A stretch of 64,000 bases of DNA, taken from contig OZ220734.1 in the NCBI GenBank assembly GCA_965116945.1, forward strand, positions 1,906,709 to 1,970,708. Direction: 5' to 3'. The notes below the pieces were generated by a model. It saw only the letters and a program-made list of their open reading frames with translations, searched no databases and had not been told where the DNA came from. This document shows, piece after piece, positions 5,399 to 63,290 of the stretch (position 1 is the stretch's first letter; every line of letters begins with the position of its first letter). This stretch comes from Dehalococcoidia bacterium. Lineage in GTDB: Bacteria > Chloroflexota > Dehalococcoidia > Plut-88900. A program made the position numbers and the translations under genes.

Positions 5399-5400
5399 GT

Positions 5401-6606
5401 CTATATGACCCCCGTTTGTTTCAGTTTGCCCAGCTCTTCGCGGCTGAACCCCAGTTCTCCGCCAAATATCTCATCGTTGTGCTCTCCGAGCGCTGGCGCC
5501 GCTCTGCGTGCCGAGACGCGGGCATGGTCTATTGTGAAAGGTGATCCTGGGTAGGCCGTTAGACCGGTTTCCCCTTCGATTCGGTTCCAAAACCCACGGT
5601 AGGCATAGTGTGGATCGTTAAGAAGGTCGGAAGCGTTGTTTATCGGAGCCGCCATGGCCCTATGGTCCTGCGCTATGCGCCAGGCTTCCTGGTTGTCCTG
5701 GCGGAGGGCCCATTCCATAATACGAGACCGAATCATGTCGAAATTTTCGGACTCCTGTCGGGCGTCGGGGTCCGTGAAGCGAAAGTCGTGGGCCAGCTCG
5801 GGTGCATCGATTAAAGTGGGGAGCTGTTCAGTGGCAGCCGGGGTTGCCGCATCGAAGGCAATGTAACCGTTGCTGGTGGGCAACACTCCACTTAATGCGC
5901 TGATTCCGGCATCAATGCGCCCTCCCCTTTCACCCGTGTATTGGTAAGAGAGGAAGGTGAGGGTGCGGCGATCTATGTTGCCTGCTTGTATTTCCATGAT
6001 GGACATGTCCAGGTGCTCCCCAACCCCCGACACTTCAGCCTCGAAAAACGCAATCATCGTCGCAAGCGCTGTTGCGGTACCGGCCTGGTGAAATACTATG
6101 CCGTCCGCAATGTTGAGTGGAGGATGGTCAGGGGTGCCGGTCACGGCCATGGGGCCGCCCATCCCGTATTGTGTAATTTCGTCAGCCTTATAGTGTTTGT
6201 AGGGTCCGGATTGTCCGAAATTCGTTACCGATGCCATCACCAGCCCGGGATTGAATTTTGATAATTCGTCAAATCCGAGACCCAAAGTGTCCATAACGCC
6301 AGGGTCAAAGCTCTCCACCAGAACTTGGGCTGAAGAGACTAGCTCACTGAATACTCTCCTGCCGGCCTCGCTTCCTATGTTGAGCGTGACGCCGCGCTTA
6401 CCAAGATTCACATACTGGAAAGTTCCGCTTGCCTCATATGCCGGGACCATTCCGGGAAAGGGAGCAAGGCGCCGGGAGGGATCACCGTTCGTTGGGGCTT
6501 CAACCTTTATTACATCGGCGCCCTGGTCGGCCATTAGCCTTGCGCTGAAAGGTCCGGGAACGCCTTTGGAGAGATCGATGACTCGTATACCGTCAAGAGG
6601 CAGCAT
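5401..6606 (-). CDS. CoA-transferase family III (CaiB/BaiF-like), second paralog in operon
   Basis: MLPLDGIRVIDLSKGVPGPFSARLMADQGADVIKVEAP. The track ORF extends to 6804 through an implausible N-terminal extension; the internal ATG at 6606 gives a normal-length protein and a sensible divergent intergenic region. Confidence 0.75.
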   Translation of the reverse strand: MLPLDGIRVIDLSKGVPGPFSARLMADQGADVIKVEAPTNGDPSRRLAPFPGMVPAYEASGTFQYVNLGKRGVTLNIGSEAGRRVFSELVSSAQVLVESFDPGVMDTLGLGFDELSKFNPGLVMASVTNFGQSGPYKHYKADEITQYGMGGPMAVTGTPDHPPLNIADGIVFHQAGTATALATMIAFFEAEVSGVGEHLDMSIMEIQAGNIDRRTLTFLSYQYTGERGGRIDAGISALSGVLPTSNGYIAFDAATPAATEQLPTLIDAPELAHDFRFTDPDARQESENFDMIRSRIMEWALRQDNQEAWRIAQDHRAMAAPINNASDLLNDPHYAYRGFWNRIEGETGLTAYPGSPFTIDHARVSARRAAPALGEHNDEIFGGELGFSREELGKLKQTGVI

Positions 6607-6738
6607 TGCATGCCTTTCACCGGGTGTCGGAAGTGGGTGCAGTATAGCATGAGCCAAGGGTACGATTGATTGACGGAGGAGTCGCGTAGCAATATGATTC
6701 GACAGGCCGATTCGAGTTAGCATTGCCGCAGAGGACAC

Positions 6739-7908
6739 ATGAAATCCAAGGCTGACGTAGTAGTTATAGGTGGCGGTGTGATGGGGTGCAGTATCCTGTT
6801 CCATCTCGCCCGTCGCGGCGTGACCGACACCGTGCTCGTGGAGAAAGAATCACTGGGCGCAGGGTCTACGGGTCGTTCCTCCGGTATTGTTCGCATGCAC
6901 TACTCCAGTGAGGTCAATGCCAGGATCGCTTTTGATAGCCTGGAGACTATCCGGGACTTTCCCGAGATAGTGGGCTACGAATCGGGGTTTGTTAATTCCG
7001 GAGCGATGTTCATGGCGCCGCCAGATACCAAGGAGGACTTCCAACGGAACATCGCAATGCAGCAAGCCCTGGGAATAGACACCAGGATCCTGGACGCCAG
7101 GCAGGCCAAAGAGATTGCTCCTCACCTTGAATTCAGTGAGTCGGACACCATTTGCTTCGAGCCTCAGTCCGGTTACGCCGACCCGCCCAGTGTAGGTCAA
7201 GGCTTTGCCACGGCCGCCCGAGGCATGGGTGCTGAGGTATTTCTGGACACTCCGGCTTCAGACGTGGAAATTGTCAACGACAAGGTAGTTGCGGTGGAGA
7301 CAAGGGCGGGCCGGATTGAGACGGATACTGCTGTGGTTGCCGCCGGTCCGTGGTCTGTCTACCTGATGCGGAAAATCGGTATAGACCTGCCCCTGAAGGC
7401 CACCCGCCACGAGGTGTTTTTCCTCAAACGCAGCCTGGACATAATTCCCGGACACCCGGTAATCGGCGACTTGGTCAACATGGCCTACATGAGGCCGGAA
7501 AGCCCTGACCTCACACTAGTCGGTGACGTGGAGCTGGAGATAGATGCTGACCCAGACAGCTACGATCAGAAGCCCAGCATGGATTACATCGAGAGGATGT
7601 GGGGCCGGGTGGCGAAACGGGCACCCGGCCTGGAACAAGCCGAGTATTTCACGGGATACGCGGGCCTTTACACCAACACCCCTGACGGACACCCTATCAT
7701 TGACAAAGTGGAAGACATAGATGGCCTTTACATCTGCACCGGCTTCAACGGTCACGGGTTCAAGGAGTCGCCGGCCGTAGGCAAGCTGGTTGCCGAGATA
7801 ATCGTGGATGGGGAGGCGACTAGCATTGATATTTCCAGTCTTGGCATGTCCCGCTTTGGCGAAGATTCTCTTCACGCCGTAGGCTATGCATCGAAGGTCA
7901 TGGGATAA
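6739..7908 (+). CDS. FAD-dependent oxidoreductase (sarcosine oxidase beta / DadA family)
   Basis: MKSKADVVVIGGGVMGCSILFHLARRG Rossmann dinucleotide motif; DAO-family length and C-terminus. Confidence 0.85.
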   Translation: MKSKADVVVIGGGVMGCSILFHLARRGVTDTVLVEKESLGAGSTGRSSGIVRMHYSSEVNARIAFDSLETIRDFPEIVGYESGFVNSGAMFMAPPDTKEDFQRNIAMQQALGIDTRILDARQAKEIAPHLEFSESDTICFEPQSGYADPPSVGQGFATAARGMGAEVFLDTPASDVEIVNDKVVAVETRAGRIETDTAVVAAGPWSVYLMRKIGIDLPLKATRHEVFFLKRSLDIIPGHPVIGDLVNMAYMRPESPDLTLVGDVELEIDADPDSYDQKPSMDYIERMWGRVAKRAPGLEQAEYFTGYAGLYTNTPDGHPIIDKVEDIDGLYICTGFNGHGFKESPAVGKLVAEIIVDGEATSIDISSLGMSRFGEDSLHAVGYASKVMG

Positions 7909-19126: not shown

Positions 19127-20335
19127 ATGCCGGGACCTTTAGATGGAATCAGAGTCGTCGAGATGGCCGTTATACACGTCGGGCCTCCCATAGGCTACAT
19201 ATTGGGAGACCTCGGCGCCGAAGTTATCAAGGTTGAGCGACCGGATGGCGGAGACCCCACCCGCTCCCGGGGCACCTTCTGGTTCGATGCCGTTAACCGG
19301 AGCAAGAAGAGCGTAACCCTGGATCTGAAGTCCGAGTCGGGGCGGGAGGTTCTGCACCGGCTAATCGGAAAGGCTGACATCTTCGTTTCCAACTTCCCCC
19401 CGGCCCTCCTTGAGCGCCTGGGCGCGGACTACGAGACGCTATCCGGCATCAACAGCAAACTCGTTTACGGGCAGGTCGGGGCCTGGGGGCCGATGGGCAA
19501 GGACAAAGATCGCCGCGCTTTCGAAGCCCTGGTGCAGGCCCGGAGCGGATTCACCGGCATCGTGAGCGGAGGTCTCGAGGCTGAACCTCTGCTCCTGGAG
19601 GGCGGCCTATTCGACCAGACGACTGCCACCGTGATGACCTATGGCATCCTCGCTGCTCTGGTTAGCCGGGAAAGGACGGGCCGAGGACAGATGGTGCAGG
19701 GCTCACTGCTGGGCAGCGCCATGCACTTCCAGCACGGTGCGGTCAATTACTCGCTGTGGGCGGACAAGTTCCCGGAGCTGAACCTGCCCCCCGGCGAAGG
19801 GTCTCCGTTGCATTCCAGGAATGACAGGACCAAAGCAACCAGTCTTCTGTACAACTGGTACCAGTGTGCCGACCGCCGGTGGATCATGTTCTGCGAACCC
19901 GACCCAGACCGATGGTGGCCGGAATTTTGCCGAGCCATTGGAGCCGAGGGTCTCGCTTCGACCTCGCCGCAAGACGAGAACTGGGCAGGCCTGAGGGGAC
20001 AGATTGACGAGATATTCGCAAAGAAAACCCTCGCCGAGTGGCTGGAGACCCTAAAGGACGCGGGCCTGGAGATGGCCTACTCACCGGTCAACTCTACGGC
20101 GGAGGTGGCCGCCGATCCCCAGGCTCGGGCCAACAACTACGTCGTTGATGTCGACCATCCAACAAGGGGAAAGATGACCTCGGCGGGCGTGCCGCTGGCG
20201 TTTTCAGGAACGCCGGTGGGCCGGGTGTCGGCGGCGCCGGGTCTCGGAGAGCACAATGAAGATGTTGCGACCGGTGTCGGGGGATTCAGCGCTGAGGAGC
20301 TCGCCCGTTTGAAGGAAGATGGGGCATTCGGATAG
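19127..20335 (+). CDS. CoA-transferase family III (CaiB/BaiF-like), third paralog
   Basis: MPGPLDGIRVVEMAVIHVGPPIGYILGDLGAEVIKVERP. Confidence 0.85.
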   Translation: MPGPLDGIRVVEMAVIHVGPPIGYILGDLGAEVIKVERPDGGDPTRSRGTFWFDAVNRSKKSVTLDLKSESGREVLHRLIGKADIFVSNFPPALLERLGADYETLSGINSKLVYGQVGAWGPMGKDKDRRAFEALVQARSGFTGIVSGGLEAEPLLLEGGLFDQTTATVMTYGILAALVSRERTGRGQMVQGSLLGSAMHFQHGAVNYSLWADKFPELNLPPGEGSPLHSRNDRTKATSLLYNWYQCADRRWIMFCEPDPDRWWPEFCRAIGAEGLASTSPQDENWAGLRGQIDEIFAKKTLAEWLETLKDAGLEMAYSPVNSTAEVAADPQARANNYVVDVDHPTRGKMTSAGVPLAFSGTPVGRVSAAPGLGEHNEDVATGVGGFSAEELARLKEDGAFG

Positions 20336-28580: not shown

Positions 28581-29459
28581 TTAATCGCGGGGCTGGTTAA
28601 TTATGGCCGCAAGGTAGCCTGCTCCGAAGCCGTTGTCTATGTTCACTACGGCTATTCCCTGCGAGCAGCTATTGAGCATTGTCATAAGAGCACCCAGGCC
28701 GCCTAAGCCTACACCGTAGCCGATGCTTGTTGGCACGGCGATGACGGGAGCTTGGACCAACCCTCCGACGACGCTGGGAAGCGCTCCCTCCATCCCTGCA
28801 ACCACGACTATGACTTTGGCCTTCTGAAGGGCCTCTACGTGGGGCAGCAGGCGGTGAATTCCCGCCACGCCAACGTCGTATAGAGTCAGAGGTTCGTGGC
28901 CCATGATTCGGCAGGTCACTGCGGCCTCTTCGGCGACAGATAGGTCGGCCGTGCCTGCGGCCAATATAGCCACGCCGTCCTTCATAACAAGTCCCTCCCG
29001 ACGGTCCAGCCAGATGATTCGGGCGGCGTCGTTGAAGACTGCGTCGGGGACACATGCCTTTACGGCTTCAAATGCCGCGGGCGTGGTGCGCGTAACCATG
29101 AACCGTCCCGCCTGCTCAGCAAGTTCCCTGGCAATGACGGTAATCTGCTCGACGGTCTTACCCTCTCCAAACACCACTTCCGGCACGCCCTTCCTGAGGG
29201 TGCGATGGTGATCAATCTTGGCAAATCCCAAATCCTGAAAAGGAAGCAGGCGGAGTCCGTCATAGGCTTCGTCAACGCTGAGTGACCCGCCCTTAACCTG
29301 CTCCAGGATGGCCCGTATTTTCTCCGGTTCGATGTGCGAACTCCTGCTGAGGAAGGGTCGGGAAATTATATCACCGGTGCGTGGACGGCTTTGGATAGTT
29401 ACACTCTCGGGCAGGTAGAACGGAAACGGGGAGGCAGACACTTGGCGGGCAACGGGCAA
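28581..29459 (-). CDS. larB: nickel-pincer cofactor biosynthesis protein LarB (PurE-like)
   Basis: EKIRAILEQVKGGSLSVDEAYDGLR ... KVIVVVAGMEGALPSVVGGLVQAPVIAVPTSIGYGVGLGGLGALMTMLNSCSQGIAVVNIDNGFGA. The N-terminal ~35 aa are atypical, so the true start may lie downstream. Confidence 0.7.
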   Translation of the reverse strand: MPVARQVSASPFPFYLPESVTIQSRPRTGDIISRPFLSRSSHIEPEKIRAILEQVKGGSLSVDEAYDGLRLLPFQDLGFAKIDHHRTLRKGVPEVVFGEGKTVEQITVIARELAEQAGRFMVTRTTPAAFEAVKACVPDAVFNDAARIIWLDRREGLVMKDGVAILAAGTADLSVAEEAAVTCRIMGHEPLTLYDVGVAGIHRLLPHVEALQKAKVIVVVAGMEGALPSVVGGLVQAPVIAVPTSIGYGVGLGGLGALMTMLNSCSQGIAVVNIDNGFGAGYLAAIINQPRD

Positions 29460-29489
29460 TCGATTTCGCTAGATGCGGCCCATCAGAAG

Positions 29490-30098
29490 ATGATGACCGA
29501 GCTTGCGGTAAGGATCAAAGAAGCCAGGGTCCTCGAGGCCTTTGCCCGCACCCCTCGGGAAGCCTTTGTTCCCCTCGCCCCTCGGGAGTTGGTCTATGGA
29601 GACCATCCATTGCCGATAGGTTTCAACCAGACCATATCGCAGCCCTACATCGTTGCCCTCATGCTGCAGGCGTTATCGCTCAAGGGCGATGAGACCGTCC
29701 TGGATGTGGGCACAGGCAGTGGATACCAGGCCGCGCTTCTGGCTCAGCTGGCAGCCAGGGTAGTAACTGTGGAGAGGGTCCCTGCACTGGTATGCGAGGC
29801 ACGAAGTCGGCTGGATGCGCTCCACTTTAGGAACGTTCGGGTGGAAATTGCGAATGATGCGTTGGGCTATTCCGACCTCGCACCCTATGACGCCATAGTA
29901 GTCTCGGCGGCGGCGCCCCGGGTCCCGGACGCCCTCGTAGAACAGCTCGCATTCGGGGGTAAGATGGTAATTCCCGTGGGCGGCAGGGAGGAACAGGAAC
30001 TACTGCTGGTGGAAAAGCGTAAGCGCAAGCCAAAGGTCAAACGCCTGGCTTTGTGCCGCTTCGTGCCACTGATCGGTGAAGGCGGCTGGCCCAATTGA
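29490..30098 (+). CDS. pcm: protein-L-isoaspartate O-methyltransferase
   Basis: TISQPYIVALMLQAL...VLDVGTGSGYQAALLAQL. The start is taken at the internal MMTELAV to give a ~200-aa protein and avoid a divergent overlap with larB. Confidence 0.8.
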   Translation: MMTELAVRIKEARVLEAFARTPREAFVPLAPRELVYGDHPLPIGFNQTISQPYIVALMLQALSLKGDETVLDVGTGSGYQAALLAQLAARVVTVERVPALVCEARSRLDALHFRNVRVEIANDALGYSDLAPYDAIVVSAAAPRVPDALVEQLAFGGKMVIPVGGREEQELLLVEKRKRKPKVKRLALCRFVPLIGEGGWPN

Positions 30099-43248: not shown

Positions 43249-44097
43249 ATGCTAATTCCTATTGAACAGCCCTTTAACCTTACCCACACCCTTGAATGCG
43301 GCCAGGCCTTCCGGTGGAGACGGGAGGGGGACTGGTATTACGGGGTCATCTACGGCAACATCCTCAAAATCCGGCAGACGCTGCTCGGGGTTGAATTCCA
43401 AAGCTATCCTTTGCCGGAAGAGCAGATCGTAAACCGTCTCATCTACTACCTCAGGCTTGATGACGACCTGCCGGACGTCTACTCCAAGATCGGCAAGGAC
43501 GACCGTATGCGACGGGCCATTACCCAGTTTTATGGTCTCCGCTTGCTAAGGCAGGAGCCATGGGAGTGCCTTGCATCATTCATCTGCTCAATCTCATCCA
43601 ACATACCCAGGATTAGCGAGTGTATAGAGTCCCTTTGCCGAAGGATGGGAGACCCATTAGAGATGGACGGACACGTCCGCTACTCCTTCCCCAGTCCCGA
43701 GAGAGTGATGGAACTTGGGGAAACGGGACTGCGGCTCATCGGTTGGGGATTCAGAGCCCCCTACCTGGCTGGCACCGCAGACCTCATTGGCAGGGGTGTA
43801 TATGACCTTGACGGTCTCAAAGAGCTCACCTATGACGATGCCAAGAAGGATCTGATGTCGCTGCACGGAGTCGGCGATAAGGTGGCGGATTGCGTGCTGC
43901 TGTTTTCCCTGGAAAAACTGGATTCCTTTCCAATAGATAGATGGGTGAGGAGAGCAGTCGAAGAGTGGTATGCAGTCGGAGAGAATCCGTCCTACGATGC
44001 CATCCGCACCTGGGCATTGGACTACTTCGGCGGTCATGCCGGCTATGCCCAGCAGTACCTCTTCCACCGCCGACGACTCGAGAAGTCAACCAGCTAG
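43249..44097 (+). CDS. ogg: 8-oxoguanine DNA glycosylase / HhH-GPD family N-glycosylase-lyase
   Basis: ECGQAFRW N-terminal motif and the HhH-GPD region LHGVGDKVADCVLLF. Confidence 0.8.
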   Translation: MLIPIEQPFNLTHTLECGQAFRWRREGDWYYGVIYGNILKIRQTLLGVEFQSYPLPEEQIVNRLIYYLRLDDDLPDVYSKIGKDDRMRRAITQFYGLRLLRQEPWECLASFICSISSNIPRISECIESLCRRMGDPLEMDGHVRYSFPSPERVMELGETGLRLIGWGFRAPYLAGTADLIGRGVYDLDGLKELTYDDAKKDLMSLHGVGDKVADCVLLFSLEKLDSFPIDRWVRRAVEEWYAVGENPSYDAIRTWALDYFGGHAGYAQQYLFHRRRLEKSTS

Positions 44098-45338
44098 GTC
44101 GCAGCTTCCTCCAGCCACTTCTTCACCAGGTTGGCCTCCTCCTCCCTGGACCCGACTACACCGTCGAGTCGGGCTTTGAGCAACCGATCCAGATTTTCCC
44201 CCACCCTTGGCCCCCGCGGCACTCCGATGGAAATCAGGTCCTTGCCACTGAGGTCGGGCCGGACACCCGACAGCCCATTGAGATAGTCGGACACCCGACT
44301 TCTCACAATCCCGCGTTGTGCAGCTACTCCAAAGGCCTGAATTGACAGCCTGCCGCACCCTTTGAAGTAACCGTAAACTTCGCTAGGCCTGAGTCTCGGC
44401 TCTGCTAACTCCGTCTCCCTGTCTCTCAGGTCAAGCATACCAAGGACAGTCTGAATCCAGTCTTTTGGGAAGCGGAAACGTTTCAGGAAGCTATGGGCTC
44501 TCTGTTTTTCTGTGGCATGAAGCAGCAGGGATAGGTAGATCGTGGAATCGACGTTCTCCAAGTCTCGGCGGGCGGATGCGAAGAGTGTGGACAACCCATC
44601 CCCGAGTCTTAGCTCCGGCTCTATAACGTCGACTACGCCTAATGCCACCGCCCGACCGAACTGAAGCTCAGGCTCGCGCTCCAGGAGAAAGAGTTCAATC
44701 TCCCGTCGCAAACGGTCTACCCCGACGGCAGGCAAGAGGTGGAGGTCACGGGCAATGAGTTCGAGTGTCTCCGGCTCAATTTCAAATCCCAGCCTCTGCT
44801 CGTATCGTATGGCCCGCATTATTCGCGTTGGGTCGTCTACGAAACTTCCCTCGTGCAAAACCCTGATCAACCCGTTACTCAGGTCCTCCCGACCCCCGAA
44901 TTGGTCCAACAAGCTGCCAGCGTTGGGAGGGCTTAGCGGAATAGCCATAGCGTTGACAGTGAAATCTCTCCGTTTCAGGTCTTCCTCTATTGGTCCAGGT
45001 CGGACGTCGGGCAGTACGCCTGGCCGTGAGTAGTCCTCTGCTCGGGAGGTGGCCAAATCGACGGCTAAGTCGTCGTGGCGGTACGTTGCGGTCCCGAACC
45101 TTGGATGCACAACTGCTTCCCCGCCCTGGTCAACCGCCAAAGCTCTGACAAGTTCCAGCGCATCACCCTCGACCACCAGGTCAAAGTCAGCCCCGCCCTT
45201 ATCCAGCAGCAGGTCTCTGACTCTGCCGCCAACAAGAAATAGGGGAGTCCGTCGTGCCTCGGCCAGCTCCCCCAGCCGACGCACCAATGCCCAGAGTCTC
45301 GGGCTGGTCTGCTCTTCTAATATCTTCAGGTAGTCCAT
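44094..45338 (-). CDS. cca: CCA-adding tRNA nucleotidyltransferase
   Basis: LFLVGGRVRDLLLDKGGADFDLVVEGD PolyA_pol head domain. Confidence 0.85.
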   Translation of the reverse strand: MDYLKILEEQTSPRLWALVRRLGELAEARRTPLFLVGGRVRDLLLDKGGADFDLVVEGDALELVRALAVDQGGEAVVHPRFGTATYRHDDLAVDLATSRAEDYSRPGVLPDVRPGPIEEDLKRRDFTVNAMAIPLSPPNAGSLLDQFGGREDLSNGLIRVLHEGSFVDDPTRIMRAIRYEQRLGFEIEPETLELIARDLHLLPAVGVDRLRREIELFLLEREPELQFGRAVALGVVDVIEPELRLGDGLSTLFASARRDLENVDSTIYLSLLLHATEKQRAHSFLKRFRFPKDWIQTVLGMLDLRDRETELAEPRLRPSEVYGYFKGCGRLSIQAFGVAAQRGIVRSRVSDYLNGLSGVRPDLSGKDLISIGVPRGPRVGENLDRLLKARLDGVVGSREEEANLVKKWLEEAAT

Positions 45339-45409
45339 TGGGTGCTCTTTATTATAGGGTGGGCCGGGTGTTAGAATTGACCCAGTTTGAAATTGAAAGG
45401 CGGGGCGAT

Positions 45410-46030
45410 ATGAGTGACAAGATTAACCTGACGGTTTTCTACGACTACCTTTGACCCTACGTACGGGTTGCAGCAGTTTGGCTGCGAGACGTAAAGGAAG
45501 CCTACGGAGACGACCTCGATATCACTTGGAAGAACTTCCCACTGGAGCAGGTGAACTCCAAGGAAGGCCCCGACTGGAAGCTCTGGGAACAGGGTGAGTC
45601 CTTTCCTAGCCGCGGGCTCCTGGCCCTCAGGGCCGGAGAAGCCGCCAAAAAGCAGGGCCCCGAGAAGTTTCAGGAATTCCATGTTGCCCTCCTCAACGCC
45701 CGTCACATGCAGCGCAAGGCCATCGACAAGCTGGAGATTCTGACTGAGGTGGCCAGGGAGTCCGGACTGGATGTCGACAGGTTCCTCGAAGACATAAACG
45801 ACCCCGAAGCCCTGAAGACCATAGCCGCCGACTATGAAGAGGCCACCTCCAAGTATGGCGTTTTCGGAGTGCCGACTATGTTCACGGAGTCAGGGGCGTC
45901 GGCCTTCGTCAAGATGATGCCTCCCCCCGAGGCGGACAAGGCTAGGGGCATTTTCGAAAACGTCCTGGGGCTGGTTGACGGAGCGCCCAACCTTCAGGAG
46001 ATCAAGCGTCCCACTCCTCCCGAGGAATAG
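45410..46030 (+). CDS. DsbA-like thioredoxin-fold protein with in-frame UGA at the CxxC position (putative selenoprotein)
   Basis: ATG at 45410 after GAAAGG. MSDKINLTVFYDYL-TGA(45452..45454)-PYVRVAAVWL continues in frame into track ORF 45551..46030. The UGA aligns with the first Cys of the DsbA/FrnE motif (FYDYL-U-PYV against WSDVV-C-PWC); the second Cys is Val here. Confidence 0.6.
45459..45492 (+). other. SECIS-like stem-loop immediately downstream of the DsbA-like UGA
   Basis: ACGT-acggg-TTGCAGC-AGTTTG-GCTGCGA-g-ACGT. The upper-stem sequence GGTTGCAG starts 12 nt after the UGA, the same position and sequence as the E. coli fdhF SECIS (GGUUGCAGG). The apical loop is AGUUUG. Confidence 0.55.
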
Positions 46031-46049: not shown

Positions 46050-46748
46050 ATGCCATTTGATATAGATTGTGAGCGCCTTATCGGCGTGAATTTCACCGAT
46101 AAGGCGCTCTTAACCCAGTCCATTACCCACACTTCCTATTCCCACGAACACCCTGAGGAATCCACGGATTCTTACGAGAGGCTGGAGTTCTTGGGTGATG
46201 CGGTTCTTGGCTTGGTTATTGCAGAAGATGTGTATGGCCATGCCGACCAGCTTAGTGCCGGAGAGATGACTACCCTTCGGGCGCAGCTAGTGTCTACCAA
46301 CTCCCTTGCTCAAGCTGCCCTGAACATGGGATTGGACAACTTTCTGCGGCTGGGTAGGGGAGAGGAGATGTCGGGGGGCAGGGCCAAGCCTAGAAACTTG
46401 GCCGGTTGCCTTGAAGCGGTGATTGGCGCTATTTGGCTGGACGCCGGGATGGAAGCCGCCCGAAATTTCATCGTGACCTCCCTCAAATCCGCTTTGGGAG
46501 AAGTCAACAAGCCTCTGGATGACTCAGACTACAAGTCCCGGCTCCAGGAGCTGACCCAGGCGACGCTTCAATCCCAACCGAGATATGAAACGGTTGAACA
46601 GATATCAAATACGGCTACCCCATTTTTCGCCTCCAAGGTCATAGTCGCGGGAAAGGCACTAGGTCACGGTACAGGGTCTTCCAAGAAAGAGGCCCAACGG
46701 GAGGCTGCCCGCAACGCCCTGGAGAAATTCTCCAAGACCCAATCCTGA
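46050..46748 (+). CDS. rnc: ribonuclease III
   Basis: ERLEFLGDAVLGL signature and a C-terminal dsRBD. Confidence 0.9.
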   Translation: MPFDIDCERLIGVNFTDKALLTQSITHTSYSHEHPEESTDSYERLEFLGDAVLGLVIAEDVYGHADQLSAGEMTTLRAQLVSTNSLAQAALNMGLDNFLRLGRGEEMSGGRAKPRNLAGCLEAVIGAIWLDAGMEAARNFIVTSLKSALGEVNKPLDDSDYKSRLQELTQATLQSQPRYETVEQISNTATPFFASKVIVAGKALGHGTGSSKKEAQREAARNALEKFSKTQS

Positions 46749-55009: not shown

Positions 55010-56077
55010 TTGCTAAAATCTAAGAAGCTCTGGCTCGGCCTGGTCGTAAGCGCGCTTTTCCTTACCCTCTTCCTCTACCGTATCGACTATTCCGAAACCT
55101 GGGACGCGCTCCGCGGCGCCAATTACCTGTATGTCCTGCCGGCCATCGCCGTATACTTCGGGTCGCTCTGGTTCAGGACTATACGTTGGCAGTACCTGAT
55201 GAAGCACCTCACCGAGGTCTCGGTGGCCCGACTCTACCCCGTCACCATAGTGGGTTACATGGCCAACAATATCCTGCCCGTGCGCCTCGGGGAAATCGTC
55301 CGCTCCTACTATCTGTCCACCCGGGAGCGAATCAGCACGACATCGGCCCTTGGCACCGTGGGCGTAGACCGCGTCTTTGACGGTCTTACCCTGATTTTCT
55401 TCCTGCTCGTTATCTGGCCCTTCCTTCCCCTTGCAGACATTCTGAAGAACGATGCCGGCGATGTAATCTGGAGCAGGGTGGTGGGCAGCGCAGTCGTATT
55501 CGCGGTGTTCCTTGGTGGGATAGTTGTCTTCGTGGCCCTCGCCGTCAGGCCGGGCCTTACCTCCTTCACCGTAAGAACGCTGCTTATCTTCGTGCCGGGT
55601 CGATTCAGAGCACTAATCAAAGGACTGGCCGAGACCTTTATTGAGGGTCTCGGGTCTCTCGGCAGCGCCAGGAAACTCTTTGTCATTTTCATTCTCTCGC
55701 TGCCAATATGGATCATGGAGTGCCTGATGTACTACCTGATCACACTCTCCTTTGATCAGTTTGACGTTTCCTTTGCTCTGGCCATGGTTGTGACCGCTAC
55801 CTCCAATTTGGTCGGGGCACTACCCGCTGCGCCCGGAAACGTCGGAACATTCGAATGGGCCATCAAGATTACCCTGGTTGCCTTTGGCTTCAACCCCGAG
55901 ATCACAGTTGCCTACGCAGCGACCCTCCACGTGGTGCTGTGGTTGCCCGTCGTGGTGGCCGGAGTAATGTATCTTTGGCTCGAACACCGTTCCCTTATGG
56001 AGCTTGTTCGTGGGGGAACGCCAGCTGCGGCCGTGGCCGGAGGCAACATCTCCATGGAAGGAGAAAACAAGGATTGA
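55010..56077 (+). CDS. flippase-like domain protein (UPF0104 / LPG-synthase TM-region family)
   Basis: TTG start; LYRIDYSETWDALRGANYLYVLPAI...WFRTIRWQYLM is typical of TIGR00374. Confidence 0.7.
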   Translation: MLKSKKLWLGLVVSALFLTLFLYRIDYSETWDALRGANYLYVLPAIAVYFGSLWFRTIRWQYLMKHLTEVSVARLYPVTIVGYMANNILPVRLGEIVRSYYLSTRERISTTSALGTVGVDRVFDGLTLIFFLLVIWPFLPLADILKNDAGDVIWSRVVGSAVVFAVFLGGIVVFVALAVRPGLTSFTVRTLLIFVPGRFRALIKGLAETFIEGLGSLGSARKLFVIFILSLPIWIMECLMYYLITLSFDQFDVSFALAMVVTATSNLVGALPAAPGNVGTFEWAIKITLVAFGFNPEITVAYAATLHVVLWLPVVVAGVMYLWLEHRSLMELVRGGTPAAAVAGGNISMEGENKD

Positions 56078-57396
56078 AAATAGGAGTCATCGGTGCGGGA
56101 GCCGCGGGTTTGGCGGCAGCCTACGAGTTGCTAAAAAGAGGCCATAACGTCCATGTCTACGAGGCTGCCCCATTCGTCGGCGGCCAGGCCTCGACATTCG
56201 ACGTCGGGGGTGGAAGGCTGGAACGGGGCTACCACCACCTCTTCAAAAGCGACACCTACATGGTGGACCTCATCCACGAACTCGGCCTCGGCGACAAGCT
56301 GGCCTGGATTGAGTCCAAGGTCGGGTTCTACCACGATGGCACCATTTACAACTTCGTGACACCCTTCGACCTGCTCAAATTCAAACCTCTGAGCCTGATC
56401 AACCGCATTCGCCTGGGCCTCGTGACCCTCTACCTTCAGAAGACAGGAAACTGGAAGAAATTCGAGAACGTCACGGCAAGGGATTGGGTAATAAAGTGGG
56501 CCGGACGTCAGGCCTACGACGTGGTCTGGGGCCCACTCCTCAGGGGCAAGTTCGGGGCCAGCGCTGATGAAATTAGCATGGCCTGGCTCTGGGGCAAGAT
56601 CTACCTAAGGGTCGCCTCCCGAGACAAGAGCCTCCAGAAAGAACGGCTCGGCTATCCGATGGGCAGCTTTGGCGAGGTTTTCGAGGTTCTCACCGAGCGT
56701 ATTGAGCAGATGGGCGGAGAGGTCCACTTGTCCACCCCCGTGACCCGGGTCATTGTGGAGAATAATCGGGCCACGGGTCTGGAGATTAAGAGATCGAATG
56801 GAGAGGCAGCCACCGAGAACTTCGACCTGATAATATCGACAACGCCGTCCTACATCTTCCCCAGGCTCGTCCCCGAACTCCCCAACGACTACACCGAGAC
56901 CCTGACCAGAATCAAGTATCATGCCGCAATTCTGGTAGTCATGGTTCTGAAGAAGTCCCTGTCCCACATCTACTGGATGAACATTAGCGGATACAAGACC
57001 CCGTTCCTCGCCGTCATAGAGCACACCAACTTCATCGACAAGTCCCACTACGGCGGCAAACACCTCGTCTATCTCAGTAACTACCTTGGCAAGGAAAGCC
57101 CCATGTATTCGATGAGCCGGGAAGAGCTGATGGCCGAGTACCTGCCTCACCTAAAACGCCTCAACCCCGACTTCGAAGAGTCCTGGATTGAGGAGTATTA
57201 CTATCACAGGGAAGAGGCCGCACAGCCTATCGTAACCACCAACTATGGCGAGAAGATTCCCGCCCACCGAACCCCCATCGACAGGCTTTATCTCGCCAAT
57301 ACCACCCAGATCTACCCCGAAGACCGGGGCACCAACTACTCCATCCGCCTCGGCCAACGGATCGCAAAGCTGGTTTTGGAAGAAAACGCTGGCTAA
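56074..57396 (+). CDS. NAD(P)/FAD-dependent oxidoreductase (amine oxidase / phytoene desaturase-like)
   Basis: (M)KIGVIGAGAAGLAAAYELLKRGHNVHVYEAAPFVGGQAS dinucleotide-binding motif. The TTG start overlaps the previous stop (TTGA). Confidence 0.75.
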   Translation: MKIGVIGAGAAGLAAAYELLKRGHNVHVYEAAPFVGGQASTFDVGGGRLERGYHHLFKSDTYMVDLIHELGLGDKLAWIESKVGFYHDGTIYNFVTPFDLLKFKPLSLINRIRLGLVTLYLQKTGNWKKFENVTARDWVIKWAGRQAYDVVWGPLLRGKFGASADEISMAWLWGKIYLRVASRDKSLQKERLGYPMGSFGEVFEVLTERIEQMGGEVHLSTPVTRVIVENNRATGLEIKRSNGEAATENFDLIISTTPSYIFPRLVPELPNDYTETLTRIKYHAAILVVMVLKKSLSHIYWMNISGYKTPFLAVIEHTNFIDKSHYGGKHLVYLSNYLGKESPMYSMSREELMAEYLPHLKRLNPDFEESWIEEYYYHREEAAQPIVTTNYGEKIPAHRTPIDRLYLANTTQIYPEDRGTNYSIRLGQRIAKLVLEENAG

Positions 57397-57486: not shown

Positions 57487-57533
57487 AGGGGTAGAGGTTA
57501 GCGCTTTTGCGCCAACCTCTACCCCTGTTTTTC
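57487..57533 (+). terminator. rho-independent terminator after the envelope-gene cluster
   Basis: AGGGGTAGAGGTTAGCGC-tttt-GCGCCAACCTCTACCCCT followed by GTTTTTCT. Confidence 0.7.
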
Positions 57534-57803: not shown

Positions 57804-58381
57804 GATAGAGCCACAGCGGATCGGCCATCCCCCGCCGAGGCGGTAGTCTCGGAGGCTGGTTAGCAGCGAGCTTACGCTATATCAAGCAGGGGTGGCGGGC
57901 CGGCTACCCCCGACCGGGACTGGATCCCGGAGGTCGGCCCGCCGGCGAGCTTGCGCCATATATCAAGCAAGGGGTCGCTGGGCCGCCTTGACCCTCGGGG
58001 GGCCCACGTAACACATGATGTCTGAGGGGGCCACAGCCCGATCACTGGCCCCCGCCATGCCTGCGGGCATTCAGAAGTGGGGTCAAGGCCCGGTTGTCTG
58101 CCCGGACAACTGGAGCACACATCGAGCGCTAGGGCGCGGCCGGCTGCAATCCGCCCTCGTGGCGGACCTCCAAGGCCCCCTACAGCCGGAACACCGCATT
58201 AGAGTAGAGGCCAACGGCTCACCAGGCGTCTTCCATCGCCAACCCTAAACCCGACAGACAACCCGAAAACCCCAAACCCTACAACTGAATAAGAACCCGG
58301 AGTGTTAGGAACCCTCGCAAACCGCCATGCCCTCCTTGAACGCCTTCTGTGTGTAGGGCATAATAGTGCGCAAGTTCACAC

Positions 58382-58870
58382 TTGGAGCAAGCGCAACCCC
58401 CCATGACGGCAACGGCCTCTACGACAGATAGAGTCAACCAGGCCCTTAATCAACAGGTCAAAGACGAAGTTACCGTTCTCTCATCCCTGATTTACGTTCA
58501 GGAGGAGTTCGGGTTCTTGCCCCCCGAGTCCATCCCCCTGGTAGCGGACTTCACCGACGCCTCCATCAACGACGTGTTCGGCGTCGCGACCTTCTATACC
58601 CACTTCCGCTTCACCCCACCCGGGCCCCACACCGTAGAAGTCTGCTGGGGCCCGTCCTGTCACGTCCGCGGCGCCGCCGAGGTGATGTCGGCGGTAAAGG
58701 CCGAATTGGGCATGGAAGAAGAAGGCACTACGAAGGACGGTCAGGTTACCTGGAAGAGGTCGTCCTGTGCCGCTGCCTGTGCCCACGGGCCCGTGGCTAT
58801 GGTCGACGAGATGATCTACGGAGACCTCACCCCCGAGGCCGCAGTACAGCTCATTAAGGACGTCCGGTAA
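58382..58870 (+). CDS. fdsG: NuoE-like 2Fe-2S subunit (FdsG/HoxE-type)
   Basis: VCWGPSCHVRGAAEV...CAAACAHGPVAMVDE thioredoxin-like [2Fe-2S] ferredoxin. Confidence 0.8.
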   Translation: MEQAQPPMTATASTTDRVNQALNQQVKDEVTVLSSLIYVQEEFGFLPPESIPLVADFTDASINDVFGVATFYTHFRFTPPGPHTVEVCWGPSCHVRGAAEVMSAVKAELGMEEEGTTKDGQVTWKRSSCAAACAHGPVAMVDEMIYGDLTPEAAVQLIKDVR

Positions 58871-58885
58871 GGTCATTTACACACC

Positions 58886-60580
58886 ATGACGGAAGCCTAC
58901 AAGCAGCTCAGAGAACGCGCTGACGCCGGTTGGGAAGCTCTCAGCAACGGCTCCCCAGTCCGAATCATGGTCGGCGCCGCTACCTGCGGTCGGGCCGCGG
59001 GCGGCCTGCAAGTGATCCAGGCTTTTGAAAAGGCCATTGCTGCGAATGGCCTCGAGGCCCGTGTCCACCGCGTCGGCTGTATCGGCCTCTGCTACGCCGA
59101 GGTGTTGGTAGACATAATAGTCCCCGGCCAACCACGCATAACTTACGCAAACGTCACCCCGGTATTAGCGGAGACCCTCGTCAAGGACTACCTCGTCGGC
59201 GGAAACCCCAGGTCAGACCTGGCCATCGGCATCAGGGGCGAAGGTTCCCTGGACGGAGTCCCCGCCCTGTTTGACATCCCCGACCTGAAACCCCAGGTCC
59301 GCGTCGCCATGCGCAATTGCGGAACAATCGATCCCTCAGATATCGACCAGTATATCGCCAACGGCGGTTACTCCGGCCTCGACCGTTGCCTGTCCGACAT
59401 GAAGCCCCCAGAAGTCATTGAGGAGGTCCTCAAGTCGGGGCTTAGAGGGAGGGGCGGGGCCGCATTCCCAGCCGCGATGAAGTGGCGCTTCCTGGCCAGC
59501 GCCCCCGGCCCGACCAAGTACATCCTCTGCAACGCCGAGGAAGGCGACCCTGGCGCCTACAACGACAAGGGCCTGCTTGAAAGCGACCCCCACACCGTCC
59601 TGGAAGGCATGACCATCGCTGGGTATGCCACCGCCGCCAGCAAAGGCTATGTCTTCATTCGTTGCGTCCACCGAGACGTAATCCGAACTACCCATACCGC
59701 CATCGATCAGGCCTACAAAGAAGGCCTGCTTGGCAAGAACATCCTTGGCACTGACTTCAACTTCGACATCGCAGTTGCTCTCACCGGCGAGTCCTATGTA
59801 TCCGGTGAAGAGACAGCCTTAATGGAGGCAATCGAAGGCAAGCGTGCCATGCCTCGGTACAGGCCCCCCTTCCCCGCCCAGGTCGGGCTCTGGGGCAAGC
59901 CCAGCAACATCAACAACGTTAAGACCTACGCTTACGTGCCGGAGGTCCTCCGCCAGGGCGGCGATTGGTACGCGAGTATCGGGACGGAACGGAGCAAGGG
60001 TACTGCCATTGTGTGCCTGACAGGCAATGTGGCCCGACCCCAGATGGCCGAAGTGCCCTTCGGCCTGACCCTCCGACAGGTCATAGATGACGTCGCCGGG
60101 GGTGTGAGTCCGGGCAACGAGATTAAGCTCCTCCAGACCGGCGGGCCCCTGGGTGGGTTCCTCGGCCCCTCCGAGATCGATGTCACCCTGGACTTTGATG
60201 AGATGGCCGGCAGGGGCGCAATCCTCGGCTCCGGCGGAATTATCGTCGGCGACGAAAGTTCTTGCCCGGTAGAAATGGCGTCAATCCTCGCCGATTTCAA
60301 CAATGAAGAGTCCTGCGGCAAATGCTTCCCCTGCCGTCTCGGGACCAAGCACATCCTCGAAAAATTCGAGACCATGACCGAAGGCAAAGCGCAGGAGGGG
60401 GACGTAGACAAGATGCTCGCCATGGGCGACACCCTTCTCACCTCCCTCTGCGGCCACGGCCAGCTCTCTGTCAACCCGATCAAATCCGCCGTCAAGTATT
60501 TTGAAGACGAACTGAACGCTCATATCATCGACAAGGTGTGCCCCGCCGGGAGGTGCGCCGCCCTCGCCAAGCCGAACTAG
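58886..60580 (+). CDS. fdsB: NuoF-like NAD(H)-binding FMN/4Fe-4S subunit with N-terminal NuoE-like domain (FdsB-type)
   Basis: GRGGAAFPAAMKW FMN site and ESCGKCFPCRLGT 4Fe-4S motif; 564 aa. Confidence 0.85.
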   Translation: MTEAYKQLRERADAGWEALSNGSPVRIMVGAATCGRAAGGLQVIQAFEKAIAANGLEARVHRVGCIGLCYAEVLVDIIVPGQPRITYANVTPVLAETLVKDYLVGGNPRSDLAIGIRGEGSLDGVPALFDIPDLKPQVRVAMRNCGTIDPSDIDQYIANGGYSGLDRCLSDMKPPEVIEEVLKSGLRGRGGAAFPAAMKWRFLASAPGPTKYILCNAEEGDPGAYNDKGLLESDPHTVLEGMTIAGYATAASKGYVFIRCVHRDVIRTTHTAIDQAYKEGLLGKNILGTDFNFDIAVALTGESYVSGEETALMEAIEGKRAMPRYRPPFPAQVGLWGKPSNINNVKTYAYVPEVLRQGGDWYASIGTERSKGTAIVCLTGNVARPQMAEVPFGLTLRQVIDDVAGGVSPGNEIKLLQTGGPLGGFLGPSEIDVTLDFDEMAGRGAILGSGGIIVGDESSCPVEMASILADFNNEESCGKCFPCRLGTKHILEKFETMTEGKAQEGDVDKMLAMGDTLLTSLCGHGQLSVNPIKSAVKYFEDELNAHIIDKVCPAGRCAALAKPN

Positions 60581-60590
60581 AGGTACACAC

Positions 60591-63290
60591 GTGGACGAAT
60601 TAAAGCTCACCGTAGACGGACAGGAGATCACGGCCAGGAAAGGCCAGACGATCATCGAGGCCGCTCGGGAGGCGGGCATCTACATCCCATACCTCTGCTG
60701 GCACCCGACTCTCAAGGCCTTCGGCGCCTGCCGCATGTGCGTGGTCCAGGTCGAAAGGATGCGAGGGACTCCGGCATCCTGCACAACGGGCGTAATGGAC
60801 GGCATGGTCGTCACGACCAAGGGCAGACAGATCGACGGGATCCGGCACAACATCATGGATATGATCCTGTCGGAGCATCCCCACGGCTGCCTGACCTGTC
60901 CCCGCATTGACCACTGCGGCCCCCAGGACACCTGCCTCCGTCACGCCAACGTCGTCGACCGCTGTGTCCTCTGTCCCCAGAACGAACGCTGTGAGTTGCA
61001 GGACGTTGTCTATCACCTCCAGATGAAGGACTCTGACCTCTCCTACGAATACCGGAACGTCCCCCTCGACTCCTCCAACCCCCTCATAGACCACGATATG
61101 AACCTCTGTATCGTCTGCGGACGCTGCGTAAGGGCCTGCAACGAGATAGAGGCCGCCAACGCCATCACCTTCATCGAAAGGGGAGACAGGACGCTTATAG
61201 GCACTTCCCTCGGCGGCTCCCTGTCCGACTCCGGCTGCACTTTCTGTGGCGCCTGCGTGGACGTCTGCCCCGTCGGAGCGATAACCGAGAAAGACAATAA
61301 ATGGACGGGCGCCCCCGAGAAGTCGGTCACGACTATCTGCTCTCACTGCAGCGTCGGCTGCCAGTTGGAACTTCTGGTTAAGAAGGACCGCGTCATCCGC
61401 TCCATCGCCGACCTCAGCGGGCCCGTTAACCAGGGCAATTCCTGCGCCAGGGGCAAGTTCGGCTACAAGTACATCCACAGCAACGACCGTATCACCACCC
61501 CCTACGTCAGGAAGAACGGCGAGCTGGTCGAAGCCACCTGGGAAGAGGCCCTGGACCTCGTCGCGGCTAAGCTCTCCGAGAATAAAGGCCCGGCCTTCGG
61601 CGCCGTCGCTTCCCCCCGGGCCACCAACGAGGAGAACTACCTTCTCCAGAAGTTCACCCGGGCGGTGATGGGATCCAACAACATAGATCATCCCGACTCC
61701 ACCTGCAATGCCGACGCCGTCTCCGCGCTTGGTGAAACTTTGGGTATCGGGGCCATGACCAACGGATTCCGCGAGCTGAGGGATTCCGGGTGCATCCTGG
61801 TCTACGGCAGCGACCTCACCTGGGACCACCCTGTGGCCGCCATCCAGGTCAAGGAGGCCGTCAACCGCGGCGCAACCCTCATCGTCGTCGACCCCGCAGA
61901 GACCGAGCTTTCCCTCATGGCAACCCACTGGCTGCGCCACTGGCCCGGAGCAGGGGTAGGTGTCCTAGCAGGCTTGGCTAAGGCCGTTCTCGATGAAGGC
62001 CTCAAGGACCAGGAATTCATCGACCGGCAGACCGAGGGCATCGATGCACTGAAAGACTCCCTTGACGGGACCACCGTGCAACAGTTCGCCGAGAGCACGG
62101 GCGTCGACCAGGAATTGCTCTTGAACGCCGCCAGGGCCTACGCTACCGCTGATTCATCGGCCATCCTATTCAGCACCTCCCGCTCCATCGAACCGGGTGC
62201 GGCCATCGCCCGGTCAGCAGCGAATCTGGCCCTGATTACTGGCAATCTGGGCAAGGGGTCGGCAGGCGTGAACCCCCTAAGGTCGGATGCCAACAGCCAG
62301 GGCACCACCGACATGGGCTGCTCTCCCTCCCTCCTCCCGGGCCACGTGTCCCTCGCAAACGGCGCCGAGACCTTTGGCAAGGCATGGGGCGCAGGCCTCC
62401 CATCGGAAGCGGGCTTGAGCTTGAACGAGATGACGGGTGTGGGCGGCGATAACGACCTGAAAGCCATGTTCATCTCCCTGGAGACCCAGCGCGAGACCTC
62501 TGACATTGACCCCCAGTCACTATCCTCCCTCGACTTTCTCGTTGTCCACGACCTCTTCTTCTCCGACGTCGCCCGGGCCGCCGACGTAGTGCTCCCTGCC
62601 GTCAGCGCCGCGGAAAAGGGCGGCACCTTCACTACCGTCGACCGCCGGATCCAGAAGGTCAACAAGGTCGTTGACCGGATTGGCGATTCCCGCACCGTAT
62701 CAGAGATTGTGAGCGCATTGGCCTCAGCAATGGGAGCGTCGGGCTTCGACTTCGATAGCTCTGCCGATGTCATGGGTGAAATCGCCTCCCTTGTCCCGTC
62801 CTACGGCGGCATCAGCCACGACCGCCTGGGTGTCGTAGGCCTCCAGTGGCCCTGCCCCGACCCCTCCCATTCCGGCACCCCCATTCTTCATGTGGAAGGC
62901 ATCGCCAGGGGTAAAGGCTTGCTTACTCCATTCGAGTCCAGTTCATACGCCCCACAGGTAGACCCGGACTACCCGATCTTCGTGATGAGTGGTGTTCTAC
63001 GGGAGATTAAGGGAGTCGTTGAGTTGGAAGGCCGTACGAGGGCGATGGTCAACGTAAACGATGCAAAGACGGCTGACATAAGCGACGGAGACGAGATCCA
63101 GGTCCTCACCCGTTCTGGAGCAGCAGACGCCGTGGCAACAGTTTGCGACTACGTCCCCGCCGGCGTGGTCCAGCTCTCCATCCCCCACACCGACGCCCTC
63201 GTCCAAGGCCTCAATCATGCTCCCGCAGCGTCGATGCCTCGCAGTGGGTCCAGGGCCAAATTGGCCAAGCTCGCTCCCGTAGTCGGCTAG
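60591..63290 (+). CDS. fdsA: NAD-dependent formate dehydrogenase alpha subunit (FdsA-type molybdopterin oxidoreductase with NuoG-like N-terminus)
   Basis: An N-terminal 2Fe-2S (CRMCVV) and two 4Fe-4S motifs, then CSHCSVGC...NSCARGKFG and the molybdopterin-binding and C-terminal beta-barrel domains; 899 aa. Confidence 0.85.
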   Translation: MDELKLTVDGQEITARKGQTIIEAAREAGIYIPYLCWHPTLKAFGACRMCVVQVERMRGTPASCTTGVMDGMVVTTKGRQIDGIRHNIMDMILSEHPHGCLTCPRIDHCGPQDTCLRHANVVDRCVLCPQNERCELQDVVYHLQMKDSDLSYEYRNVPLDSSNPLIDHDMNLCIVCGRCVRACNEIEAANAITFIERGDRTLIGTSLGGSLSDSGCTFCGACVDVCPVGAITEKDNKWTGAPEKSVTTICSHCSVGCQLELLVKKDRVIRSIADLSGPVNQGNSCARGKFGYKYIHSNDRITTPYVRKNGELVEATWEEALDLVAAKLSENKGPAFGAVASPRATNEENYLLQKFTRAVMGSNNIDHPDSTCNADAVSALGETLGIGAMTNGFRELRDSGCILVYGSDLTWDHPVAAIQVKEAVNRGATLIVVDPAETELSLMATHWLRHWPGAGVGVLAGLAKAVLDEGLKDQEFIDRQTEGIDALKDSLDGTTVQQFAESTGVDQELLLNAARAYATADSSAILFSTSRSIEPGAAIARSAANLALITGNLGKGSAGVNPLRSDANSQGTTDMGCSPSLLPGHVSLANGAETFGKAWGAGLPSEAGLSLNEMTGVGGDNDLKAMFISLETQRETSDIDPQSLSSLDFLVVHDLFFSDVARAADVVLPAVSAAEKGGTFTTVDRRIQKVNKVVDRIGDSRTVSEIVSALASAMGASGFDFDSSADVMGEIASLVPSYGGISHDRLGVVGLQWPCPDPSHSGTPILHVEGIARGKGLLTPFESSSYAPQVDPDYPIFVMSGVLREIKGVVELEGRTRAMVNVNDAKTADISDGDEIQVLTRSGAADAVATVCDYVPAGVVQLSIPHTDALVQGLNHAPAASMPRSGSRAKLAKLAPVVG

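Follow-up and report, generated by a model that had tools for sequence, protein, structure and literature searches.

A DsbA-like gene of a Dehalococcoidia bacterium whose in-frame UGA very probably encodes selenocysteine

The stretch of DNA analyzed here (the window, 64,000 nucleotides from a Dehalococcoidia bacterium) carries on its forward strand a gene whose UGA codon at 45452-45454 very probably encodes selenocysteine (Sec), in a cytoplasmic DsbA-like protein with a single active site, of the kind catalogued as 'DsbA 3 (UxxV)'. This assignment is carried by the reading frame, the Sec/Cys pairing among homologues, a SECIS hairpin conserved across genomes and the protein fold. The gene and its two flanking genes have the following features:

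44094-45338, reverse strand: CCA-adding / poly(A) polymerase family gene, upstream and divergent
45395..45405, forward strand: Shine-Dalgarno-like element GAAAGGCGGGG, read from the sequence, 4-14 nt before the ATG
45410..46030, forward strand: predicted DsbA-like selenoprotein coding sequence, about 205-206 residues including Sec15, stop codon TAG
45452..45454, forward strand: UGA, predicted Sec codon 15, first position of the U-P-Y-V motif and Sec/Cys column in homologues
46050-46748, forward strand: rnc (RNase III), 19 nt downstream, with the Pfam domains Ribonuclease_3 and dsrm

Reading frame and the Sec/Cys column

The region 45410-46030 is one frame of 206 codons on the forward strand with a lone in-frame TGA, codon 15 (45452-45454). 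From the ATG at 45410, it comprises 14 sense codons, the TGA and 191 sense codons up to the TAG at 46028-46030, so that the frame continues past the UGA as the initial annotation of this DNA had stated. Its translation is MSDKINLTVFYDYL*PYVRVAAVWL..., with the active-site motif U-P-Y-V at residues 15-18, in the context D-Y-L-U-P-Y-V. According to Pfam, searched with U changed to C, the DSBA domain PF01323 covers residues 7-161 with an E-value of 3.7e-18 and 66.4 bits against a cut-off of 25.6, which bears out the assignment to the DsbA family. The 52 long non-overlapping ORFs of the window end in TGA (12), TAG (29) or TAA (11), and since TGA closes 12 of them the genetic code is not reassigned, as had also been argued at first. 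The element GAAAGGCGGGG upstream of the ATG may act as a Shine-Dalgarno sequence, and the GAAAGGCGG block before the ATG is common to two relatives (L001 and L002). A scan for TGA-split ORFs found no second TGA-split selenoprotein gene in the 64-kb window; a candidate at 29205-30098 proved false, the methyltransferase there simply beginning downstream.

A protein search gave 318 homologues. The nearest database proteins (59-90% identity) all have 162-197 residues and start just past the TGA position, and more distant ones (~50% identity) have their full length, with ...YYDYL-C-P-Y-V... at the site. At the DNA level, two of the truncated matches showed the same in-frame TGA behind a conserved N-terminal peptide. 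A genome scan with one genome per species (GTDB representatives) yielded 80 loci, which belong to Dehalococcoidia, SAR202 and Thermomicrobiales, plus one Nitrospinota bin. In the locus tally, which includes the window and two earlier loci beside those of the scan, 66 of the 81 species-level loci have TGA at the aligned codon and 15 have TGC or TGT. A Cys is thus present at the UGA column of the Cys-containing homologues, where the initial annotation had proposed to look for it. The Cys forms carry C-P-[YF]-V at the site, in agreement with the earlier description of a UGA at the first active-site position and a Val in place of the second Cys; as Cys homologues also read C-P-Y-V, the family is single-Cys by nature. 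Furthermore, the 14 codons 5' of the TGA differ from those of close relatives by 6-8 synonymous and 2 non-synonymous codon differences, and this synonymous excess indicates that the stretch is translated.

It is very unlikely that the TGA is a true stop, with the gene being a pseudogene or encoding a shorter protein from a start farther 3'. Such a stop would agree with the database entries P0001-P0012, every one of which begins after the TGA, and with the normal use of TGA as a stop elsewhere in the window; however, 66 species-level genomes have the TGA at this very codon, a conserved in-frame N-terminal peptide and a Shine-Dalgarno-like element precede it, and synonymous changes outnumber non-synonymous ones 5' of it. 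The first start codon 3' of the TGA in the window is at 45551, and a start there would remove strand 1, the active site, helix 1 and strand 2 of the protein. The start codons picked by gene callers vary among relatives and are not conserved; the GTG used in one of them (P0001/L001) is GTA in the window. Truncation of homologues at this position, which had been named initially as a sign against Sec, does not extend to the DNA, where the upstream sequence is in frame and conserved in 66 genomes; the database homologues are short since gene callers take the TGA for a stop. The TGA/Cys column and the upstream conservation together make a classical Sec/Cys pair, which leaves hardly any room for a pseudogene, an error of assembly or a start farther downstream. 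Gene calls for all close relatives from public protein collections give a 5'-truncated protein of 162-197 residues without active site; this is a systematic error, and it leaves the selenoproteins of marine Dehalococcoidia and SAR202 under-annotated.

A SECIS hairpin conserved in the Sec forms

Folding of 45450-45510 (61 nt) with RNAfold gave a 7-bp upper stem and a 4-bp lower stem with an energy of -19.1 kcal/mol, and reproduced the upper stem UUGCAGC/GCUGCGA and the loop AGUUUG of the initial annotation. The hairpin spans 16-35 nt downstream of the UGA. Its parts are:

45468..45487, forward strand: SECIS upper stem-loop, from the minimum-free-energy fold and the pairing across 54 Sec forms
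45468-45474, forward strand: 5' arm, UUGCAGC
45475-45480, forward strand: apical loop, AGUUUG
45481-45487, forward strand: 3' arm, GCUGCGA
45459..45493, forward strand: possible lower stem, ACGUACG ... ACGUA, in the window fold only and not conserved

The bSECIS criteria (PMC13188914) ask for a loop of 3-9 nt, a stem of 4-16 bp and a G in the first two loop positions, with a spacing of 16-37 nt between UGA and loop and an energy of at most -7.5 kcal/mol. The hairpin of the window, with a 6-nt loop that begins 20 nt past the UGA, 7 bp and an upper stem of -9.2 kcal/mol by itself, lies within all four. Taken as a single sequence it is unremarkable against shuffles (z = -1.39), and among the 1,823 UGA trinucleotides on both strands of the window, 4.7% precede a hairpin within the bSECIS limits, and for 1.6% the hairpin is at least as stable as this one. 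A lone hairpin is therefore weak statistically, and its significance rests on conservation across genomes. Rfam showed no SECIS family match in the whole window at gathering thresholds, nor in 45300-45700 at E <= 10, where just a spurious lncRNA match appeared. The bacterial SECIS models of Rfam are clade-specific, and for this reason the blank is no argument against a SECIS.

Conservation was analyzed in a gapless alignment of 54 distinct Sec-form segments from the TGA to +54. In helix columns 17-24/29-36, 81.7% of the cells are paired, a value that 500 column shuffles never reached, and with the 3' partner displaced by 1-3 columns pairing is 22-55%. The core CAGC/GCUG is invariant in the Sec forms. 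The flanking pairs covary, both at 17-36 (AU 25, UA 9, CG 3, GC 2, UG 1) and at 18-35 (UA 35, CG 4, UG 1); RNAalifold on the 54 Sec forms gave the invariant 4-bp core only, with no covariation term, and the covarying pairs were found beyond it by explicit pair counting. With this pairing and covariation, the proposal of a SECIS hairpin directly downstream of the UGA holds. The hairpin occurs in two variants: that of the window, (U/C)(U/C)GCAGC-AGUUUG-GCUGC(A/G)(A/G), and a commoner one, AU-G-CAGCC-GUGU-GGCUG-G-AU. In both, the loop opens with G-U, 20-21 nt past the UGA.

The codons that form the hairpin also encode a conserved peptide, V-A-A-V-W-L-R, with which helix 1 begins, and stem complementarity comes partly free, since the conserved A-A-x-W-L peptide encodes it. 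The Cys forms provide a natural control. Loop bases G25 and U26, the first two of a Val codon, are invariant in 62 of 62 Sec forms, and just 5 of the 15 Cys forms have Val at this codon. At column 21, a wobble position, all 62 Sec forms have A or G, which pairs with U32, and six of the 15 Cys forms have C. The mean energy of the best SECIS-type hairpin is -7.7 kcal/mol in Sec forms against -2.9 kcal/mol in Cys forms (Mann-Whitney p = 9e-10, a statistic that ignores kinship), and two Cys forms (L029 and L070) still form a similar stem. The Sec forms thus keep the hairpin, which is relaxed in the Cys forms.

The ACGU/ACGU lower stem of the initial annotation stood in part. It is predicted in the window; however, it is at best 66% paired across homologues, without compensatory change, and was rejected as part of the SECIS. 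Three lower stems, including the RNAfold and the ACGU/ACGU registers, were 58-69% paired with almost no two-sided changes. The third of them, a stem that takes in the UGA and is seen in 'type B' relatives, falls within the same range, and none of the three is claimed.

The same octamer at the same spacing as in the SECIS of E. coli fdhF had also been pointed out, and this is literally true. The octamer GGTTGCAG lies at 45466-45473, 11 nt past the TGA, and the fdhF sequence TGA-CACGGCCCATC-GGTTGCAG-GTCTGCACC was found by megablast with 100% identity in 5,419 of 5,426 E. coli genomes. As in fdhF, the element of the window lies inside the coding region just 3' of the UGA, has an apical loop with G-U and contains the identical octamer GGUUGCAG, starting at the 12th nucleotide after the UGA. 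The fdhF SECIS is a 17-nt minimal stem-loop with the stem GGU(U)GCA / UGCACC, a bulged U and the loop GGUC. In contrast to this structure, the octamer of the window pairs in another register, without a bulge and below the loop AGUUUG, so that the hairpin differs from the fdhF type in register, loop and bulge. Furthermore, the octamer is confined to the closest relatives, most family members having AAUGCAGCC-GUGU-GGCUGGAU, and its absence from them indicates that the identity with fdhF is largely coincidental. The resemblance is of kind, not of family.

Protein fold and proposed mechanism

The protein modeled was a Cys homologue (P0015), 50% identical to the window protein, with an alignment of 68 sequences. 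Its AlphaFold model, with a mean pLDDT of 95.6 and a pTM of 0.90, shows a thioredoxin fold into which a helical domain is inserted. The Cys at the position of Sec in the window directly precedes helix 16-35, and so stands at the N-terminus of helix 1. A nearly invariant G-[VT]-P-T, which is G-V-P-T in the window, precedes strand 156-158 and corresponds to the cis-Pro loop of DsbA-type proteins. The active site, residue 15, comes directly past strand 1, which leaves no room for a signal peptide and places the protein in the cytoplasm.

The best sequence match (E = 1e-11) among the proteins of known structure compared here is DR2335 of Deinococcus radiodurans (PDB: 7dk9, and 7dka for C24S), which is also the best fold match of the P0015 model, with a TM-score of 0.87, an rmsd of 2.1 A and 29-30% identity. 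As the window protein, DR2335 is cytoplasmic and has one active-site Cys (DFLCPYAW) and no resolving Cys; it differs in carrying Cys instead of Sec and in being about 25 residues longer. A 2022 review (PMC8945050) lists DR2335 as DsbA-like with a single conserved Cys and gives no function or expression data for it, and DR2335 therefore informs the fold and not the mechanism. The second-best fold match (TM 0.71-0.74) is Rv2466c, a mycothiol-dependent reductase of Mycobacterium, which is likewise a cytoplasmic DsbA-like protein and works with a low-molecular-weight thiol; unlike the window protein, it has a CPWC dithiol site, and identity is 18-20%. The window protein scores 26.0 bits against the cut-off of 27 for the Rv2466c-like family PF22234 and has no second Cys. 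Foldseek with the P0015 model also returned kappa-class GST, HCCA isomerase and classical DsbAs at TM 0.55-0.65. Classical periplasmic DsbA (CPHC in E. coli) shares the thioredoxin fold, the inserted helical domain and the cis-Pro loop; however, its TM-score is only 0.55-0.62, and the window protein has U-P-Y-V instead of a CxxC pair, and no signal peptide.

On the basis of these data, the following sequence of events is proposed. Translation would begin at the ATG at 45410, and the UGA at codon 15 would be decoded as selenocysteine. The hairpin, acting as a bacterial SECIS, would recruit SelB with Sec-tRNA(Sec) to the ribosome of the Dehalococcoidia source organism, the GU of its loop being supplied by the Val codon of the helix 1 peptide, and after Sec insertion the ribosome would read the 191 further codons. 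In the folded protein, the selenolate at the N-terminus of helix 1 would face the cis-Pro loop (G-V-P-T) and might attack a disulfide, a mixed disulfide or another electrophile, giving a selenenyl-sulfide. In a protein without resolving Cys, this would have to be resolved by an external thiol or a reductase. Mono-selenol catalysis of this kind is the most likely chemistry, judging from the modeled fold and the single-nucleophile site.

Two further ideas on the gene are put forward tentatively, and we regard them jointly as rather improbable. A single-selenol protein could have a specific job tied to rnc, rather than generic disulfide reduction, or its target could be one particular low-molecular-weight thiol or electrophile. 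The other idea is that the RNA element, and not the needs of the protein, may fix the sequence of helix 1 at the invariant Val of A-A-V-W-L; if so, the gene would show cleanly, in a natural case, how a SECIS constrains the evolution of a protein.

Selenoprotein family, Sec decoding and gene neighborhood

DsbA-like selenoproteins have been in the catalogues since 2005-2006, and the GOS selenoproteome (Zhang and Gladyshev 2008, PMC2398784) contains three DsbA families. One of them, 'DsbA 3, pfam01323, UxxV', was described with five Sec sequences and 72 Cys homologues, and two of its GOS reads show ...IYFDFR-U-PFVYNVAVWL... and ...FIDYT-U-PWVRQAGIWL...LEQVNSKEGDDWKAWEQ... (PMC2398784). The comparison with DsbA selenoproteins from ocean metagenomes, which the initial annotation had recommended, matched the window protein to a 'DsbA 3' read, JCVI_READ_1592875, by BLASTP with 36% identity over 201 residues and an E-value of 1e-45. 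The window protein combines PF01323, at the 66.4 bits given above, with the U-x-x-V motif, and shares with 'DsbA 3 (UxxV)' the D-x-x before Sec and the blocks W..F.LEQ.N and FG.PT. By these sequence characters, the gene is an ordinary member of a selenoprotein family published in 2008. A 2026 catalogue (PMC13188914) lists a 'DsbA-like protein form 2, PF01323, DxxUP', whose representative MDP6049977.1 is labeled as crotonase family; this form is probably the same as 'DsbA 3 (UxxV)', the match being by the motif D-Y-L-U-P and not by sequence.

As to recoding, the gene raises no new question. Modestly new is the taxonomic placement of the family in Dehalococcoidia, SAR202 and Thermomicrobiales, with the Sec form in the majority; the 2008 set consisted of five reads without organism, and the family of the window is now found in named lineages. 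Also modestly new are the hold of the SECIS on the Val codon and on wobble positions of helix 1, and the pairing with rnc. The dominance of the Sec form in these lineages (66 of 81 loci) fits their reported richness in selenoproteins. Two Dehalococcoidia MAGs with 46 and 49 selenoproteins are among the richest bacterial selenoproteomes (BSepDB, PMC13326102), and Sec use in Chloroflexi was known by 2006 (PMC1794560).

The Sec machinery, which the initial annotation predicted to exist elsewhere in the genome, has support at clade level from these MAGs. It was also searched for nearby. None of the 30 large ORFs of the 64-kb window encodes SelA, SelB or SelD according to Pfam, and no tRNA-Sec was found in the window by ARAGORN and Rfam, or in 60 related loci by ARAGORN. 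An ARAGORN 'tRNA-Ser(tga)' at 57906-58001 was rejected as tRNA-Sec, as it has the wrong anticodon and lacks Rfam support.

These searches of the window would suit a UGA recoded to Cys or another standard amino acid, either through a tRNA-Sec-like tRNA-Cys using SelB or by near-cognate read-through, and so would the Cys found at the site in 15 homologues. Some bacteria are reported to have tRNA-Cys species that resemble tRNA-Sec and are delivered by way of SelB and a SECIS. Nevertheless, the hairpin with its invariant GU is of the SECIS type, which is a signature of SelB-dependent decoding, the family is catalogued among the selenoproteins, large selenoproteomes are reported for related Dehalococcoidia, and for a Cys a TGC or TGT would suffice, as in the Cys forms; such recoding is hence highly improbable. 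A work on RNA-dependent Cys biosynthesis in Chloroflexi (PMC5424206) contains nothing on UGA. An error of sequencing or assembly at the TGA, or a mutation of TGC/TGT peculiar to the strain, has a probability close to negligible: a single base separates these codons and the window is one assembled sequence, yet the same TGA is found in 66 independent assemblies from different projects, several of them closed chromosomes such as the sister chromosomes OY764147.1, OZ241876.1 and OY760104.1, and goes together with a hairpin absent from the Cys forms. Selenocysteine thus stays the preferred reading of the codon.

With respect to the gene neighborhood, rnc lies directly 3' of the selenoprotein gene in 44 of 82 loci, in Dehalococcoidia and SAR202, and all 44 are Sec forms. 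Neighbors other than rnc are retained only in the approximately 10 closest genomes. The gene is probably co-transcribed with rnc, its conserved neighbor. In the window, rnc is followed by genes encoding an FMN-binding protein and a nitronate monooxygenase, and by ftsY.

Genomic context and distribution of the DsbA-like selenoprotein gene

The DsbA-like selenoprotein gene is followed directly at its 3' side, on the same strand, by the RNase III gene:

46050-46748, + strand, rnc (RNase III)

A same-strand rnc immediately downstream of the DsbA-like gene was found in 44 of the 82 fetched loci, as well as in the window. All 44 rnc-adjoining loci are Sec forms, which carry TGA at the active-site codon, and rnc is directly downstream in none of the 15 Cys forms (TGC or TGT at this codon) among the fetched loci. 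Neighbours other than rnc are kept only in about 10 close genomes. The DsbA-like gene and rnc may form a conserved operon, or their adjacency may merely reflect phylogeny.

Sec forms were also found outside Dehalococcoidia, one in a Nitrospinota bin (L072) and three in Chloroflexia/Thermomicrobiaceae (L044, L065 and L071), which suggests horizontal spread or an ancient use of Sec. In some of these four loci the Trp codon of the SECIS hairpin is substituted (A-A-V-L-L, loop GUCC) and the stem is retained. Furthermore, two Cys forms of Thermomicrobiales (L029 and L070) retain a SECIS-like stem, CAGCC-AUGU-GGCUG, at an unchanged position, with AU in the loop where the Sec forms show GU. A recent switch from Sec to Cys may have left these stems as relics, or they may arise incidentally from the A-A-x-W-L peptide.

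Putative catabolic genes and the NuoE/NuoF/FdhA-like operon

Family III CoA-transferases are represented in the window by three paralogous genes and the arginase family by two; an amidase gene and a Rieske ring-hydroxylating oxygenase gene are present as well. This set is in keeping with the catabolic capacities that have been reported for SAR202-type Chloroflexota. The window also contains an operon encoding a molybdopterin subunit:

4103-6804 and 19127-20335, the three CoA-transferase paralogues (family III)
58382-63290, + strand, operon encoding NuoE-like (2Fe-2S), NuoF-like (FMN/NADH) and molybdopterin FdhA-like subunits

The FdhA-like subunit has 899 residues and shows, at the Sec/Cys position of formate dehydrogenases, the sequence HPDSTCNADAV, with Cys and without the next His. 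This subunit is not a selenoprotein and is possibly something other than a true formate dehydrogenase.

Non-coding elements upstream of the operon

The amine oxidase gene and the elements between it and the operon are located as follows:

55855-57396, amine oxidase gene
57487-57526, near-perfect inverted repeat of 18 bp with a 4-nt loop
57878-57892 and 57959-57973, two copies of the repeat TATATCAAGCA(G/A)GGG, 81 nt apart
57906-58001, - strand, 96-nt 'tRNA-Ser(tga)' called by ARAGORN

The inverted repeat lies about 90 nt past the amine oxidase stop codon and looks like a terminator. The tRNA call had no match to the Rfam tRNA model, even at E <= 1, and its anticodon stem is poorly paired; the call is probably a false positive and does not represent a tRNA-Sec. 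Both TATATCAAGCA(G/A)GGG copies, one of them overlapping this dubious call, are found in the non-coding gap of about 1 kb upstream of the operon, and the pair could possibly represent operator or promoter elements.
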